DNA of 64,000 bases from a virus (Duplodnaviria > Caudoviricetes): positions 96,001-160,000 of IMG/VR virus record IMGVR_UViG_3300020576_006967; one strand, given 5' to 3'. Under the pieces are notes generated by a model. The model was not told the origin of the DNA. It saw only the letters and a list, made by a program, of their open reading frames with translations, and made no database searches. The position numbers were made by a program, and so were the translations under genes. Positions 6,734-38,232 of the stretch are shown piece after piece; positions within the stretch are counted from its first letter, which is position 1, and each line of letters opens with the position of its first letter.

Positions 6734-7431
6734 AATATTACCTATACACTTTTAGAGACACATTAGACGGTCACAAGCTTGTTGGTTTTAAAGTTTTTAC
6801 CGAAATAGAGAAAGACATAGAACTAACTAGAATAAAAAAGAATTTTAAAAACGGCGGAACAATTTACTTTGGAGAGGATGGCGATTACGAATATGAGTAC
6901 GATTCTTTAAGAGATTTGATGTCTAGCATTAAAATAAAAGAAATACACAACATTCAATACAATTCGATAAAAAGTTCTTTTGAATCTGGTGAATTTGGTT
7001 ATTTAGGACCACTTAATTGTCAACCAGAAGATGAATACTGCGAAAATTGTGGTGGCTTACTTGAAGAATGCGATCAAGACATGTGTGATTCATGCAGAGA
7101 AGACGAAGAAGATGAAGAGTGGGAAAATTGTTATAATAAGCAAGTGGTCAATTTAGCTAAAATGATTAAGACAGAGTTTAATCTTGAGGAAACTGGACGT
7201 GTAAATTTTGCTTCATATTTTTCTTGGAAGCCTACTTCTAAAACAGAAATTGAAATTAGCATTAAAACTTTTGATGATGGTGGAGAAGATGATGAAGTAG
7301 AAATCAATTTAAAATACAACAATAAAGATGTTGGCTATGAGTGCTATGGAATAGAAGATGCTGAATCAGATTTTGAGGACACTGTTAAAAAAACGGTAAA
7401 CAACTTTTTAAACAAATCAAGAAGTTACTAA
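6730..7431 (+). CDS. hypothetical protein with CxxC...CxxC zinc-ribbon
   Basis: CENCGG...CDSC and acidic stretch. Confidence 0.7.
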   Translation: MKYYLYTFRDTLDGHKLVGFKVFTEIEKDIELTRIKKNFKNGGTIYFGEDGDYEYEYDSLRDLMSSIKIKEIHNIQYNSIKSSFESGEFGYLGPLNCQPEDEYCENCGGLLEECDQDMCDSCREDEEDEEWENCYNKQVVNLAKMIKTEFNLEETGRVNFASYFSWKPTSKTEIEISIKTFDDGGEDDEVEINLKYNNKDVGYECYGIEDAESDFEDTVKKTVNNFLNKSRSY

Positions 7432-29004: not shown

Positions 29005-29062
29005 AGTTGAACTTTTGTTAATAAATATGTTTAAAAAAGGTCTGGGAAAATTTGGAAAATTG

Positions 29063-29091
29063 TGAAACCTTTTATATCTTTGTTCGTATAA
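29063..29091 (+). promoter_or_regulatory. ECF-sigma-like phage promoter
   Basis: TGAAAC-N16-CGTATAA before ATG 29112. Confidence 0.75.
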
Positions 29092-29111
29092 TATTAAAAT
29101 CAAGACGAAAG

Positions 29112-29762
29112 ATGCAAAAGACAGCCACGCAAACAGCCACAAACAGCGCAAGCAAAGGGTTAACAAAGAACGTAATTCAATTCCGTAATGGTTTTGTAAA
29201 TTTACCAAGTTCTAAATCGGCTAATTATCAGATGGCAATGTCTGTTACTGCTGAACTTATGCAATTTGGTTATATTCTTGAACAATCTGCTATAACAAAT
29301 TTGAGCTCAGCTTCCAAAGAAGATATTATAAATTTCCACAATGAAATAATTGTGTATTTAAAACATATGACTGGTTCTAATAGAAACTACCAAGCTTTCT
29401 ATTCTGGTTTTCCAACTCAAGTAATGGAAATGTCTGATTGCGAACTTTGGGTAAACCAAATTGTTCATTATATTTCTAATGGTCGTTTTGTTCCAAACGA
29501 ATGGACAAAAGAAAAACCGACAGCTTTCGAGAATTCAAAATATACAAAAATTGGTTCTGGAAATGATGAAAAATTTATAAACATTTTTACTGATTTGGTA
29601 AGTGTAAACAACTCTTTAACACCAGACGATCAAAGCATTATTGAGTTTTTTATAAGCAATGGAATTGAATTAAGATTTCCTGACCAGATACCATTTAAAG
29701 AAAATCTTTGCAAGGTTATAGGTGAATTAGCTAAAAGTGGTAAAAAAATAGAAATTGAATAA
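29112..29762 (+). CDS. N-terminal half of a split large TerD-domain stress protein
   Basis: ELMQFGYIL...FYSGFP.QVMEM...NQIVHY...SLTPDD...IPFKENL, as in the N-terminal region of long TerD-domain proteins. Confidence 0.75.
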   Translation: MQKTATQTATNSASKGLTKNVIQFRNGFVNLPSSKSANYQMAMSVTAELMQFGYILEQSAITNLSSASKEDIINFHNEIIVYLKHMTGSNRNYQAFYSGFPTQVMEMSDCELWVNQIVHYISNGRFVPNEWTKEKPTAFENSKYTKIGSGNDEKFINIFTDLVSVNNSLTPDDQSIIEFFISNGIELRFPDQIPFKENLCKVIGELAKSGKKIEIE

Positions 29763-30750: not shown

Positions 30751-32388
30751 ATGAACACAACATTAAATAAAGAACAAAACACTATTGTGTTAAAAAATTT
30801 AAAACTGACCGTGACAGATATTTTGCGTGTGGCAGTTCATATGTCTGGTGGAGATATTTCATTGCCAAAGGTGCCAAGAAAACTTATTAGAGCTAACAGA
30901 TGGAGCTCACATCAGTCTGCCAATCCAGAGCGTGAAAAATTTAAGTTTAAAAGCTTTTCTCGTCCTGAACGTAGAATTATCCTTTCTCTTCTTGAGAAAA
31001 CAAATTGTGATGCTTCCGAAGCAAAACTTAAAGCGCAGCGTTGGGCAAAACTTGGTCATTCACTTCACGTTGGTGAATATGCAAAGAAATTTCCAAAAGC
31101 TTTAGCTATGTTCAATTCTGTGCGTAATGAAAAGGTGCAGTCTTGGTATGGTAAAGTAAATAGCGCATTTGCTTCTTCTTTTAACGAAGGAATTAAACTT
31201 CTTTCACAAAGACCAGGTGAATTTATGCGTAAACTTGACTGGTTGCTTAGAACAGAGGTTTCAAGCACAAAACCTTTTAAAGGAAATATCCTTGCAAAGT
31301 ATTTTACTAAGGATCCACATGTTTCAGATTCTTTAAAGAAGTTGACCCTTGAAGAAAGAGTTGCTCTTGTATTGGATGTGTTTAAAGTTATTGCTCCTAA
31401 AGTAAGTAACAAAGTGTTATATGAAGCATATAGCCATTTTGAAGGGCGTTACGAGGAAAAAACTAATAGAACTATTATGGTAAAGGGTTCAAGAAAAAGA
31501 ACTACATTACCTAGTTTGCCAGCTATTCCAGCAAGTGTAATTGAATCAGTTCAGCGAGGTGTTATTGAAGCTCTTATGAGTAAATTTGCTGCATTACCAA
31601 AGCTTGAAAAAGTTTATGTGGATGAGCAATTAAAAAACATTCCTATGCCAACTAACATGCGTTCTTTAAATTCTTCGTTGAAGCCTACTATCAGAGGTTT
31701 GAGAATGCCTATTGGAAACACAGACTCTAAGGTAATTCGTGTTTATGTTCACTGGTTCGATGAACGTGGAAATAAAGATATTGACTTGAGCACAACTTTT
31801 GTTGGAAATAACAAGCAGCCAATTGTAATTGCTTACACAAATTTGAGAAATGAGTTTACTACTCACTCAGGTGACGTAAGGCACCGTCAAGGTGCTTGTG
31901 CTGAGTACATCGACATTGAAATTGCTAAAGCACGTAAGGCTGGATACAAATATGCAACTGTTGATATCAGAAACTTCAATGGTGGATCTCTTGCGTCAAT
32001 TAAGGACTGTGTGTTTGGCTTCATGGAGCGTGAGTTCCCAGAGTCTAACAAGACATTCTTACCTTCTACATTGGCAAATTCAATGAAGTTGGAAAGTTCA
32101 TCTACTGTAACTTTGGCCGTGATTATTGATCTTGAAACCAGAGAGTACATATATATGGACATTGATTCAACATCGTTGCCAGTTGCTTCTATGTCTGTAA
32201 AAGACACTATTGCTGCAATTAAGCCTTATACAGATGCACCAAAATTCTCTGTATATGACTTAGCATTGCTTCACGCAGAAGTTAGAGGTGCAGAACTTGT
32301 TGAGAAAGAAGAAGAAGCTAACACCTGCTTTAAGTTTGAAGAATATAGCCAAAGCTATATCGAAATACTTAAACTCATGGGAGTTTAA
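30751..32388 (+). CDS. C-terminal half of split TerD-domain protein
   Basis: TVTDILRVAVHMSGGDISL, RPGEFMRKLD, TerD-like DIDLS...HSGD....ACAEYIDI. Confidence 0.8.
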   Translation: MNTTLNKEQNTIVLKNLKLTVTDILRVAVHMSGGDISLPKVPRKLIRANRWSSHQSANPEREKFKFKSFSRPERRIILSLLEKTNCDASEAKLKAQRWAKLGHSLHVGEYAKKFPKALAMFNSVRNEKVQSWYGKVNSAFASSFNEGIKLLSQRPGEFMRKLDWLLRTEVSSTKPFKGNILAKYFTKDPHVSDSLKKLTLEERVALVLDVFKVIAPKVSNKVLYEAYSHFEGRYEEKTNRTIMVKGSRKRTTLPSLPAIPASVIESVQRGVIEALMSKFAALPKLEKVYVDEQLKNIPMPTNMRSLNSSLKPTIRGLRMPIGNTDSKVIRVYVHWFDERGNKDIDLSTTFVGNNKQPIVIAYTNLRNEFTTHSGDVRHRQGACAEYIDIEIAKARKAGYKYATVDIRNFNGGSLASIKDCVFGFMEREFPESNKTFLPSTLANSMKLESSSTVTLAVIIDLETREYIYMDIDSTSLPVASMSVKDTIAAIKPYTDAPKFSVYDLALLHAEVRGAELVEKEEEANTCFKFEEYSQSYIEILKLMGV

Positions 32389-33490: not shown

Positions 33491-34102
33491 TTGGATTACG
33501 AAAAACAAATAGATATCATAAGAAGCGTAACTCACAGTATAGAACCTCACAAAGTGACCATACTTACTGGAAAAAACGGTAGCGGTAAATCTCTTGTAAG
33601 AAAAATATTGAGTGGAGTTATAAGTGAAAAGTGTGGAACTGATATCAAACACACTGTTGCCGCAGTTTCTATGGAATCTAGATCAAATCGCAAAATGGAT
33701 TTCAGCGCTCTTAATTCTGCTGGCATTGACGATCCTGAAAATCCAACTGGTTTAGAAAGTCTTCACAATCTGGACATGATTCTTGGATCCTTTACAAAGG
33801 ACAGTCCAAGATATATTGTGATTGACGAGCCTGAGCTTGGCATGGGTGAAGAAATGGTTGTTGCTTTTGCTAACAAATTAAACTCTGTTTTTGAAACGCT
33901 TCCAGAGGGTTGTTTGGGTGTTATGATCATTACTCACAGTCCAACAATGATAAAGCTGTTAAAAGGCAAATTTGCTAACATGGAGGGTATGACTCGTGAA
34001 GAATGGCTTAATAGAGAAATTATACCCACTGATTTAGAGCAATTTAAGGTTGATTCCCTGGGTCTTTGGAGGGCAATACAAAATTATTCGAAAAAAAATT
34101 AA
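33491..34102 (+). CDS. ABC-type ATPase (stand-alone)
   Basis: Walker A GKNGSGKS, Walker B/D-loop IVIDEPELG, H-loop IITHS. Confidence 0.85.
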   Translation: MDYEKQIDIIRSVTHSIEPHKVTILTGKNGSGKSLVRKILSGVISEKCGTDIKHTVAAVSMESRSNRKMDFSALNSAGIDDPENPTGLESLHNLDMILGSFTKDSPRYIVIDEPELGMGEEMVVAFANKLNSVFETLPEGCLGVMIITHSPTMIKLLKGKFANMEGMTREEWLNREIIPTDLEQFKVDSLGLWRAIQNYSKKN

Positions 34103-34109
34103 AAAATAC

Positions 34110-34140
34110 TTGCTATTTATTTGAAATAGTATTATATTTG
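34110..34140 (+). promoter_or_regulatory. Bacteroidota sigma70-type promoter for the ncRNA array
   Basis: TTG-N20-TATATTTG (TAnnTTTG). Confidence 0.7.
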
Positions 34141-34167
34141 TACTCAGAAAGTTCTTTTACGTATTTT

Positions 34168-34780
34168 AAACAAACTAAAGCAGGCCATGTGTCTAGTTAC
34201 TTCTATCTCTTGAAATGATTTTACTGTCACGCTTTCCAGCTTTACTTTGTTTTACAGATATTCAAAAATATTGACGGCCATCTGTATTCTTACTTCTCGC
34301 CGAAAGGCATTCAATTGTTAACTGAAACCACAGAAGCAGAATTACCGTCTTTGTTATTGGAGGCCATGTGTCTACTTACTTCTAAATTTTTCAGCAAAAA
34401 AAACATTAGTATCACAATTTCCTCCTGTTATTTCAAATAAGTTTAAACGGCCACATGTCTAGTTACTTCTACTTTTATTCCAAAAAACTACTAGCATAAT
34501 TACCGTTTAAACTTATTTACCTTATTAAACTGGCCATGAGTCCAGCTACTTCTACAGATCCACCTCAAGGAGGATTACCAAACTGCTAGCTCAATTACCA
34601 GTTTATGTTCTTTAAAATATTGTCAATTCAGGGCTAAACGGCCATGTACCCAGAGACTGAAAACTACTTCATCAGGTTCCCGTAATTGGAACCCGTGAAA
34701 GTTCAGAGTCTGCAGCTACTTCTATACAATTATAAAATAGAGATGATCTTATGATCGGATGCTGATACAATTACCGCCTG
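34168..34780 (+). ncRNA. array of six structured ncRNA units sharing a GGCCAY...TACTTCT...AATTACC scaffold
   Basis: GGCCAY at 34183, 34276, 34362, 34449, 34532, 34640; compensatory base changes in three stems; no long ORF; own promoter and terminator. Confidence 0.85.
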
Positions 34781-34816
34781 GAAAAACAATCATCGGGTCA
34801 TCTCGACCAGAACAAT

Positions 34817-34859
34817 AATCCGCCATTACACATAAGAACATGGCGGATTTTTTGCTTTT
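34817..34859 (+). terminator. Rho-independent terminator ending the ncRNA array
   Basis: AATCCGCCAT / ATGGCGGATT 10-bp stem plus T-tract. Confidence 0.75.
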
Positions 34860-34862
34860 AAT

Positions 34863-34891
34863 TGAAACCTTTATGATAGTTTTACGTATAA
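34863..34891 (+). promoter_or_regulatory. ECF-sigma-like phage promoter
   Basis: TGAAAC-N16-CGTATAA. Confidence 0.75.
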
Positions 34892-34916
34892 ATGTATATG
34901 AATCTAACAATTTATC

Positions 34917-37006: not shown

Positions 37007-37465
37007 ATGTTTGGATTTTTATACAGAGAAATGGAAAGCACAGGGTCTGGAGACCGATTTCCCAAGAGGATTGAAAAATTTAGAAAAGCTGAAAAGCGCT
37101 TTCCAATATTGCAGCACTATTTTTGGTGGTTTACGCATAACTGTATAACTCATCCGTTAATTGGTTTGATTCCAGTAAAGTTATTCTTCCAATTTCATGA
37201 TTGGACAAGCGTAAAGCTAAATGCTGGAGAATCAGCTTTATCAACTCCGCTGGATGATTTGGAAGCCTGTAAGGCTCAAGCTAAAAAAATACATGAAAAG
37301 CTAAAAGAAATAAGCGGTAATGAAGAAGCAGATTCTATTTGGGAAACATTGGTTTTAATTGAAGCTTTAGAGGCAGATATTCGATATAATCAAGATCAAA
37401 AACGTGCTGGCAGATTAAGAAGAGCAACAAGAATAATTTTTAAAGAACAACAAGAGAAAATATGA
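37007..37465 (+). CDS. hypothetical protein
   Basis: WWFTHNCITHPLIG...HDWT. Confidence 0.65.
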   Translation: MFGFLYREMESTGSGDRFPKRIEKFRKAEKRFPILQHYFWWFTHNCITHPLIGLIPVKLFFQFHDWTSVKLNAGESALSTPLDDLEACKAQAKKIHEKLKEISGNEEADSIWETLVLIEALEADIRYNQDQKRAGRLRRATRIIFKEQQEKI

Positions 37466-38232
37466 AAGACGCAATAGGAGATAGAATGAAGGAAGATTTC
37501 GAGGATAGAACTCGAATTTCATTGCCAAGAAGAAGTTACACAATAGCGAGAATTGACGGGAAATCTTTCCATACTTACACCAGAGGTCTTACAAGACCTT
37601 TTGACGACGGATTGATAGAAGATATGGATTTAACAGCTGCGTACCTGTGCAAGAACATTATGGGTGTTAAATTCGCATTTGTACAATCTGATGAAATTTC
37701 TTTGTTACTAACAGATTTTGAAGATATTGGCACACAAGCCTGGTTTGACAATAATTTACAAAAAATGTGTAGCGTTTCAGCTTCTATGGCGACAAGAGCT
37801 TTTAACGAAGCTAGACTTAAAAGGTTTGTAAGTGATAAAGTGTTTTTTACAAAATGGGCCGAGTTCGATAGCAGGTTTTTCCAGATTCCTCAAAAAGCAG
37901 AAGTGTTCAATTATTTCTTGTGGAGACAAAAAGATGCCACCAGAAACAGCATTTCTTCTGTAGCGCAATCGTTGTATAGTCAGAAAGAATTGAATGGAGT
38001 TAACTCTGATCAAAAACAAGAATTAATTTTTCAAAAAGGAATTAATTGGAATGATTATCCTTCTAAATATAAACGTGGGAGAATTATTCTAAAAGAATCT
38101 TACGAAAAAGCTCCAGATATAGATGTTATTAATTCGTCTTCTTCAACTAGGACTAAGTGGATTAGTGTAGATACACCAATATTTACACAAGATAAAGAAT
38201 TTTTGAATAAATTGATCCCAGATAATTTATAA
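37462..38232 (+). CDS. thg1: tRNA(His) guanylyltransferase / Thg1-like 3'-5' polymerase
   Basis: GDRMK, RIDGKSFH, QSDEIS, FDSR, YFLWRQKDATRNS, GINWND.P..YKRG. Confidence 0.92.
   Translation: MKDAIGDRMKEDFEDRTRISLPRRSYTIARIDGKSFHTYTRGLTRPFDDGLIEDMDLTAAYLCKNIMGVKFAFVQSDEISLLLTDFEDIGTQAWFDNNLQKMCSVSASMATRAFNEARLKRFVSDKVFFTKWAEFDSRFFQIPQKAEVFNYFLWRQKDATRNSISSVAQSLYSQKELNGVNSDQKQELIFQKGINWNDYPSKYKRGRIILKESYEKAPDIDVINSSSSTRTKWISVDTPIFTQDKEFLNKLIPDNL

Follow-up and report, generated by a model that had tools for sequence, protein, structure and literature searches.

In Ro60 ribonucleoproteins, a small Y RNA tethers or gates the protein. In the ToxI–ToxN system, the ToxI RNA is made of identical repeats that are processed by a small endoRNase toxin. 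Bacteria and phages encode YrlA, a modular RNA in which a tRNA-like domain is attached to the Ro-binding stem; its genes are found no more than 4 kb from rsr, in the same orientation (Chen et al. 2014, PMC4201824). Y RNAs and YrlA possess a conserved Ro-binding motif, GNCGAAN0-1G, near the 5′ end (PMC4201824). Small structured RNAs are likewise embedded in phage tRNA clusters. Specifically, theta ribozymes adopt a nested double-pseudoknot HDV fold and have their cleavage site at the tRNA 3′ end (PMC10879173).

Here, we focus on an array of small RNA genes in a phage genome that resembles each of these systems in part. The source record is a 188,933-base IMG/VR virus, estimated to be 74% complete, and the window that we analyzed is its 64,000-nucleotide stretch from base 96001 to base 160000. 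Positions are those of the window unless they are given as genome positions. Six units span positions 34171–34780 of the + strand, and they appear to be genes for small non-coding RNAs of an apparently undescribed and widespread family. All share the fold P1(GG/CC)-CCAY-P2(3 bp)-NN-P3(4 bp)-UACUUCU-variable arm-P3′-N-P2′-AAUUW-CC, in which we call the constant scaffold the handle and the variable arm the payload. Scores for the individual units refer to R1, a covariance model derived from the five regular units of the window:

34171–34249, + strand: unit 1; outer stem of about 10 bp, GG/CC, CCAU; P2 GUG/CAC; P3 UAGU/ACUG; 18-nt arm; R1 73.8 bits
34273–34349, + strand: unit 2; P2 CUG/CAG; P3 UUCU/AGAA; 34-nt arm with a GCC-GAAA-GGC hairpin; R1 67.7 bits
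34359–34425, + strand: unit 3; P2 GUG/CAC; P3 UACU/AGUA; 24-nt A/U-rich arm; R1 82.5 bits
34435–34518, + strand: unit 4; perfect 16-bp P1; P2 AUG/CAU; P3 UAGU/ACUA; 19-nt arm; R1 79.7 bits
34526–34605, + strand: unit 5; P2 GAG/CUC; P3 (C)AGC/GCU(A); 31-nt arm with a small hairpin; R1 68.7 bits
34629–34780, + strand: unit 6; 62-nt hairpin between P2 (GUA/UAC) and P3 (CAGC/GCUG); 37-nt arm

An earlier note, made from the letters of this DNA alone, placed GGCCAY starts at 34183, 34276, 34362, 34449, 34532 and 34640, and we find each of them there. Its list of P2 and P3 pairings matches ours, with a G–U pair in P3 of unit 1 and one C–A mismatch in P3 of unit 5. The 16-bp outer stem that it described for unit 4 is real (z = −7.4), and unit 1 does carry GCUUU where the other units have AAUUW. 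Within the window, GGCCAY-N9-TACTTCT occurs exactly five times, every copy inside the array. When up to two mismatches are allowed, eight occurrences are seen versus 1.5 expected, and none of 100 shuffles reaches eight. Unit 6 falls outside this fixed-spacing pattern because 62 nt are inserted between its P2 and P3. By eye and by fold, unit 6 has all the handle features plus the insertion, and it is because of the insertion that its match to the covariance models is partial (14–19 bits); units 1–5 score 53.7–82.5 bits against R1 and R2, the latter a model built from 66 phage units.

The array is flanked by predicted signals of its own, a Bacteroidota-type promoter before it and a terminator after it, as first proposed:

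34110–34140, + strand: promoter-like site of the Bacteroidota type (TTGC-N19-TATATTTG), read from the sequence
34817–34859, + strand: predicted intrinsic terminator; 10-bp G+C-rich stem, 13-nt loop, U6; fold −14.4 kcal/mol

A sigma-70 scan lists 34110–34138 with 9 of 12 positions, and the promoter-like site is nearly identical in a close relative, the metagenome contig L219, which also has a terminator at the corresponding place. The consensus terminator scan missed 34817–34859 because the loop is 13 nt long. Between unit 6 and the terminator lies a small hairpin, GGUCAUCUCGACC (34796–34808), kept as GGUCGUCUCGACC in L219.

The structure of the handle is under selection. Minimum free energy folding recovers the P1/P2/P3 stack in all six units. 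In an alignment of five units (A2), 96.7% of cells pair, versus 72.5% in shuffles, and 8 of the 12 pairs change on both sides. Sliding the 3′ partner out of register reduces pairing in this alignment to 27–70%. The window units are 60% identical by column. The covariation listed in the earlier note holds in larger alignments. Specifically, across 64 distinct phage units, 96.2% of cells pair and 250 changes are double-sided, in an alignment fitted to R1, which favors pairing. Across 53 distinct bacterial units, 98.0% of cells pair and every one of the 12 pairs shows compensatory changes. The phage units are invariant at GG, C-Y-A-Y, the S-U end of P3, UACUUCU, and UUU-CC. Taking phage and bacterial columns together, the unpaired GG, CUAU, UNCUUCU, and UUUCC are invariant, as is expected of a protein or tertiary contact surface. 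The family is defined by a P1 closed by GG/CC, CYAY opposite NNUUU, a 3-bp P2, a 4-bp P3 ending S-U/A-S, and UNCUUCU directly after P3.

The array had been read as a constant, putatively protein-binding handle with a variable arm, neither CRISPR nor tRNA, and belonging to no named family. Every test that we ran agrees with this reading. ARAGORN calls no tRNA in the window, the Rfam tRNA model (RF00005) has no match in the array by cmscan, and a T-arm is absent from all six window units. Rfam 15 yields no family match to the array, neither at the gathering threshold nor at E ≤ 10. Complementarity between the variable arms and the phage genome is no better than chance matches of 11–13 nt, and a guide role against self is therefore unsupported.

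Relatives exist in phages and metagenomes. At a cut-off of E ≤ 0.001, R1 identifies 66 units in 24 phage or metagenome sources, and a tandem pattern allowing GGCYAY recovered many phage contigs, with arrays of up to seven units. The metagenome scan revealed the close relative L219, which has a syntenic six-unit array and a matching promoter, and a distant relative, L216/L217. From the window to L219, the scaffold is almost unchanged and the arms have diverged. The GNRA hairpin of unit 2 is kept on an altered stem, P2 of unit 5 goes from GAG/CUC to UUG/CAA with two pairs changed on both sides, and the unit 6 ortholog has only about 10 nt at the P2/P3 joint. In other relatives, a similarly large unit carries its insertion at that joint. 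Relatives' handles match no Rfam family by cmscan to E ≤ 10.

The payloads of relatives are short A/U-rich arms or consist of a T-arm and a closed acceptor-like hairpin. In one case (L217:6686–6820), the payload is a complete tRNA body (51 bits to RF00005) in which a GAAA tetraloop replaces the anticodon loop. Thus, decoding is not the point. The neighboring tRNAs of L217, at 6829–6955 and 7038–7158, carry inserts that are full or decayed handles.

Sequence searches by other routes returned nothing further. BLASTN of the array against 50,697 phage records matched nothing, and exact full-unit GGCCAY and permuted patterns gave no real match in IMG/VR. Three IMG/VR matches to the permuted pattern were chance occurrences in coding sequence, and a 14-base pattern gave only single chance matches there. 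Contigs L218 and L220, which came from the metagenome scan, were likewise discarded as relatives because their matches arose by chance in coding sequence.

A single protein gene accompanies the arrays. Specifically, ORF clustering shows that an ORF family of about 690 aa (phrog_33734) adjoins arrays in 20 of 25 phage or metagenome sources, the window included. The partner gene usually ends about 20 nt before the first unit, and in relatives it is one intact 690-aa ORF. In the window, it lies 1.8 kb upstream of the array on the + strand, as two ORFs:

29052–29762, + strand: N-terminal fragment of the partner protein, 236 aa; residues 3–186 of the 690-aa reference; BLASTP 49% identity, E 6e-58; phrog_33734; own stop codon
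29778–30737, + strand: free-standing HNH homing-endonuclease ORF splitting the partner gene; phrog_559, E 2.8e-60; Pfam DUF4379 and DUF723
30751–32388, + strand: C-terminal fragment of the partner protein, 545 aa; residues 200–690; BLASTP 51% identity, E 0; own ATG

With the partner gene in two pieces and a promoter-like site dedicated to the array, coupling looks looser in the window than in the relatives.

The link between RNA and protein extends to bacteria. Using the partner-protein profile alone, we retrieved 80 bacterial loci from Bacillota, Acidobacteriota, Armatimonadota, Planctomycetota, Obscuribacterales, and others. R1 gives weak matches in these loci just upstream of the partner gene, on the same strand. 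R2 identifies 61 units in 39 of the 80 loci, every one of the 61 on the partner gene's strand and most of them less than 1 kb upstream of its start. The loci include Paenibacillus, Bacillus, Priestia, Brevibacillus, Acidobacteriota, Armatimonadota, and Obscuribacterales, and the bacterial units read GGCUAU...UUCCUUCUA...UUUCC. No other neighboring gene is conserved in the bacterial loci. Given that the RNA and the protein travel together across phyla with nothing else shared, they are most simply partners. The search for arrays and neighboring genes in phages and bacteria, which the earlier note had put forward, has in this way uncovered a family coupled to one protein family across phyla. Whole-genome searches of five bacterial genomes with R2, in which E-values are genome-wide, found none among the 150 candidates scored out of thousands. 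In one Bacillus sp. locus (L345:3587–3820), the partner gene is preceded by two to three handle units in tandem, of which the third shows the variants GACUAU and UUCUUCU. Arrays are thus not confined to phages.

What kind of protein is the partner? Pfam finds nothing in it, TROVE included, and NCBIfam gives a partial match to the MXAN_6230/SCO0854 family. Its C-terminal domain has the TerD fold (Foldseek E 2e-5; VIA Z 13.6). The helical domain was folded alone with 56 sequences (pLDDT 85.2), and the three best structural matches to this model among 48,161 chains are three Ro60 structures, those of Thermus phage phiLo (Z 8.9, rmsd 5.1, 246 residues), Xenopus (Z 7.7), and Deinococcus (Z 7.5). 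The Ro60 alignments (246–261 residues) span the whole helical domain; other matches cover about 100 residues. This predicted likeness is suggestive and modest, with Z below 9 for a helical repeat. Foldseek with the helical domain returns nothing from the PDB at E ≤ 0.001, HHalign of the partner against eight TROVE proteins gives a probability below 1%, and the Pfam TROVE model does not match the partner in four bacterial genomes. Neither Pfam, NCBIfam, nor Foldseek finds a nuclease or toxin domain in the partner. In the window, the C-terminal fragment comprises the rest of the helical Ro60-like domain and the TerD domain. We found no description of the handle RNA or of the RNA–protein pair in the literature searched or in Rfam 15. 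Literature on the names of the protein family, and on TerD together with Y RNA or tRNA-like, yielded no account of the pair.

Other genes near the arrays are less constant companions. A Thg1-like tRNA-His guanylyltransferase (3′–5′ polymerase) gene at 37462–38232 has 47–72% identity with those of many 100–450-kb phages. No handle unit is present in 80 flanks of these relatives or in five whole jumbo-phage records, and the idea of Thg1–array synteny was dropped because the flanks lack the array. A 203-aa P-loop (ABC/AAA-like) ORF at 33491–34102, immediately upstream of the array's promoter-like site, has no relatives in IMG/VR by pattern search. Genes for a 148-aa protein and a metallophosphoesterase follow the arrays of relatives. 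They are absent or distant in the window genome and absent from the bacterial loci, and we attribute them to lineage synteny only.

On balance, and by analogy with Ro60 and Y RNA, we lean toward the interpretation that the units are handle RNAs of a Ro60/Y-RNA-like ribonucleoprotein. The handle, comprising P1 with its GG/CC, the asymmetric CYAY/NNUUU internal loop, P2, P3, and the single-stranded UNCUUCU, would be the docking site of the ~690-aa protein, and the invariant loops and UNCUUCU would form a putative protein-contact surface. The variable arm would be the payload that the protein–RNA particle carries or presents. We infer that a polycistronic precursor is processed into the individual RNAs, which the earlier note put at about 70–150 nt. 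If the Ro60/Y RNA analogy holds, the particle would most likely act in RNA or tRNA maintenance during infection. The covarying structure, the gene linkage, and the TerD and Ro60-like fold of the protein argue for such a ribonucleoprotein. So do the payloads of relatives, which mimic tRNA parts as YrlA does, and the pairing of a constant scaffold with fast-evolving payloads between the window and L219. Four observations point the other way. First, the likeness to Ro60 is modest and comes without detectable sequence homology to TROVE. Second, removing the handle restores a perfect anticodon arm in tRNA-Tyr of the window genome and in tRNA-Asn of relatives. Third, the RNA occupies a leader position in bacteria, where it may be purely regulatory. 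Fourth, coupling to the partner gene looks looser in the window than elsewhere.

The second observation stems from handle copies that lie outside the array. A genome-wide pattern search located two more copies beyond the window, at genome 1.9–2.3 kb, in a phage tRNA cluster. There, the order is circularly permuted: P3′-P2′-AAUUW-CC-loop-GG-CCAY-P2-P3-UACUUCU. The first, genome 1870–2004 (L001:1120–1254), is a tRNA-Tyr(GUA) gene. When introns are allowed, ARAGORN reports an intron of 48 nt at 37/38 whose extent coincides exactly with the handle; neither ARAGORN at its default settings nor the Rfam tRNA model detects the gene. In this graft, UACUUCU supplies U, A38, and the 3′ strand of the anticodon stem, and the paired 5′ strand is AGAAG. 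The second, genome 2206–2303 (L001:1456–1553), is an acceptor/T-arm minihelix whose CCA is encoded and whose D and anticodon arms are replaced by the handle; its tRNA-like end produces a weak match to the tmRNA model (12.4 bits). Relatives provide a parallel. In L285, L224, L297, and L237, a permuted handle interrupts tRNA-Asn(GUU) between nucleotides 28 and 29, and removal of about 53 nt gives back CGAGG/CCUCG together with a perfect CUGUUAA loop. These permuted copies in tRNA-Tyr and in a tRNA-like gene, together with the partner gene 1.8 kb upstream and the wide spread of the family, go beyond what was first read from the array.

Two further gap-filling tRNA-like genes in the tRNA clusters, genome 4327–4458 and 7867–7972, are recognized only when introns are permitted. 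In one, which has an amber-reading CUA anticodon, the insert is 58 nt long and contains AAAAUUUCC...GGCUGC, possibly a degenerate handle. This CUA anticodon hints at TAG recoding. The other is tRNA-Gly(UCC)-like, with a 12-nt insert.

Because handle removal regenerates perfect tRNA-Tyr and tRNA-Asn, the main rival to the ribonucleoprotein is that the handle is an excision signal. The perfect anticodon arm that results is more like the product of an intron than of a tether. The notion is that the partner protein, or else a different nuclease, makes a cut on each side of the handle, one lying a few nucleotides 5′ of P3′ and the other just 3′ of UACUUCU, and that an RNA ligase, for example the phage's RtcB, joins the flanks. 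The tRNA genes would then yield functional tRNA-Tyr and tRNA-Asn, and from stand-alone units the variable arm would be set free, perhaps in circular form as a small RNA. The exact coincidence of handle and intron in tRNA-Tyr is consistent with excision, as is the restoration of tRNA-Asn in the four relatives, and the insert-bearing tRNAs of relatives still score 41–57 bits against the Rfam tRNA model. The genome moreover encodes an RtcB RNA ligase at genome 18138–19214, outside the window (PF01139, 111 + 18 bits in one 458-aa frame), in addition to the Thg1-like tRNA repair enzyme. However, the splice distances vary: 1, 3, or about 7 nt after UACUUCU and 4–9 nt before P3′. No 3-4-3 bulge-helix-bulge motif is evident on reading the tRNA junctions, and EndA (PF01974) has no match in the genome record, which is 74% complete. 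Many payloads cannot become tRNAs, among them the A/U-rich arms of 18–34 nt and the tRNA body with GAAA, and the bacterial loci have single units with short loops, outside any tRNA context. We consider excision unlikely. Were it nonetheless correct, a Ro-shaped TerD protein plus RtcB could form a protein-dependent cut-and-rejoin system, not known in bacteria or phages, and a third kind of tRNA splicing, with the variable arms released or circularized as a programmable small-RNA set. We regard this combined outcome as unlikely, to the same degree as excision itself.

Less likely, and in our judgment improbable, is that the RNA regulates the partner protein, as an autoregulatory leader or as an antitoxin-like RNA in the type III manner, with the phage arrays serving as sponges for the host or phage protein. 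The bacterial RNA occupies the 5′ leader position of the partner gene, which makes a purely regulatory role conceivable. The typical bacterial layout, namely a promoter, one to three units, a U-run, an SD, and then the partner gene, is that of ToxI–ToxN loci and of ribosomal-protein leaders, and the phage array is multi-copy. Nevertheless, the units differ and covary, unlike identical ToxI repeats, and the partner has no recognizable nuclease or toxin domain. In most phages, the array is downstream of the gene, and in the window it is 1.8 kb away with its own promoter-like site and terminator. Moreover, regulation leaves no role for the tRNA-like payloads and the tRNA grafts.

The least likely reading, and a very improbable one, is that every unit acts as a small self-cleaving or self-processing ribozyme, dividing the polycistronic transcript and the tRNA precursors into pieces: invariant internal-loop nucleotides between covarying helices, circular permutation as in twister and hammerhead, and a phage tRNA gene context as for theta ribozymes (PMC10879173) would suit it, but no Rfam ribozyme family matches the array or its relatives at E ≤ 10, strict linkage to one protein gene across phyla is unexpected for an autonomous ribozyme, and cleavage within the anticodon arm of a tRNA would call for another cut as well as a ligase. 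In particular, the seven weak Rfam matches in window 34050–34900 at E ≤ 10 include no known self-cleaving ribozyme family; hammerhead, twister, twister-sister, pistol, hatchet, hairpin, and HDV-like families were covered, by Rfam models that do not represent every permutation. Readings of the conserved loops as an anticodon loop, K-turn, tetraloop-receptor, HDV, or hairpin ribozyme fit poorly by eye and were dropped.

If the pairing of handle RNA and ~690-aa protein is real, it would constitute a second, independent Ro/Y-RNA-like particle, joining a conserved small-RNA scaffold to a large uncharacterized protein in large phages, in many uncultured phyla, and in Bacillus, Priestia, Paenibacillus, and Brevibacillus. 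A TerD-domain protein family with no known role would gain a function, and catalogs would gain a new RNA family. The odd insert-bearing phage tRNA genes, which standard tRNA finders miss, would be explained. The phage arrays with interchangeable payloads, combined with the tRNA grafts, suggest that the scaffold serves in nature as a platform on which RNA modules are displayed. Tractable carriers, including Priestia megaterium and Bacillus, make the hypothesis directly testable.

How, then, does the ribonucleoprotein that we favor compare with known systems? Like theta ribozymes, the handles are small structured RNAs embedded in phage tRNA clusters; unlike them, the handle is a simple interrupted hairpin with no HDV-type match in Rfam. 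Like ToxI–ToxN, tandem small RNA units lie beside the partner gene, and in bacteria upstream of it, with a terminator-like U-run between. In contrast to ToxI–ToxN, the units covary and differ in payload, and they are accompanied by a 690-aa helical and TerD protein. Like tRNA introns, the handle lies inside tRNA genes, at 37/38 in tRNA-Tyr and at 28/29 in tRNA-Asn, and canonical tRNAs result once it is taken out. However, at 48–58 nt it is far too small for the group I introns of bacterial anticodon loops, and, unlike archaeal and eukaryal bulge-helix-bulge introns, it shows no such motif, nor does the genome have an EndA match. Unlike tRNA introns in general, it also occurs free-standing with non-tRNA payloads and in bacterial leaders.

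The closest parallel is with Ro60 (Rsr) and its Y RNA and YrlA partners, and it has limits. The handle has no Rfam Y RNA match at the gathering threshold or at E ≤ 10. Its 5′ strand is an invariant GGCYAU, and GNCGAAN0-1G is not conserved: the only such string, GNCGAANG, lies within unit 2's payload hairpin and is missing from the L219 ortholog. Unlike Ro60, the partner lacks detectable TROVE homology, and the Pfam TROVE model has no match in the 189-kb record. Unlike Y RNAs, handles form arrays of up to seven units and, to our knowledge, circular permutation into genuine tRNA genes has not been described for Y RNAs. Nonetheless, in both cases the gene of a small, modular RNA lies within a few kilobases of one large protein gene and shares its strand; the protein is RNA-binding in the Ro60 system, and both systems occur in bacteria and phages. 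As in YrlA, a conserved stem, putatively on the protein side, is combined with a variable module that in relatives often mimics tRNA, in the form of a T-arm or a closed acceptor-like hairpin. Here, T-arms occur in the arrays of relatives and in none of the six window units, and in the window genome the handle sits within the tRNA-Tyr and the minihelix at genome 1870–2303. As with Ro60 and Y RNA, several RNAs may accompany one protein gene. Finally, the predicted architecture of the partner resembles that of Ro60 in having a helical domain followed by a second globular domain, TerD in the partner and vWA in Ro60.
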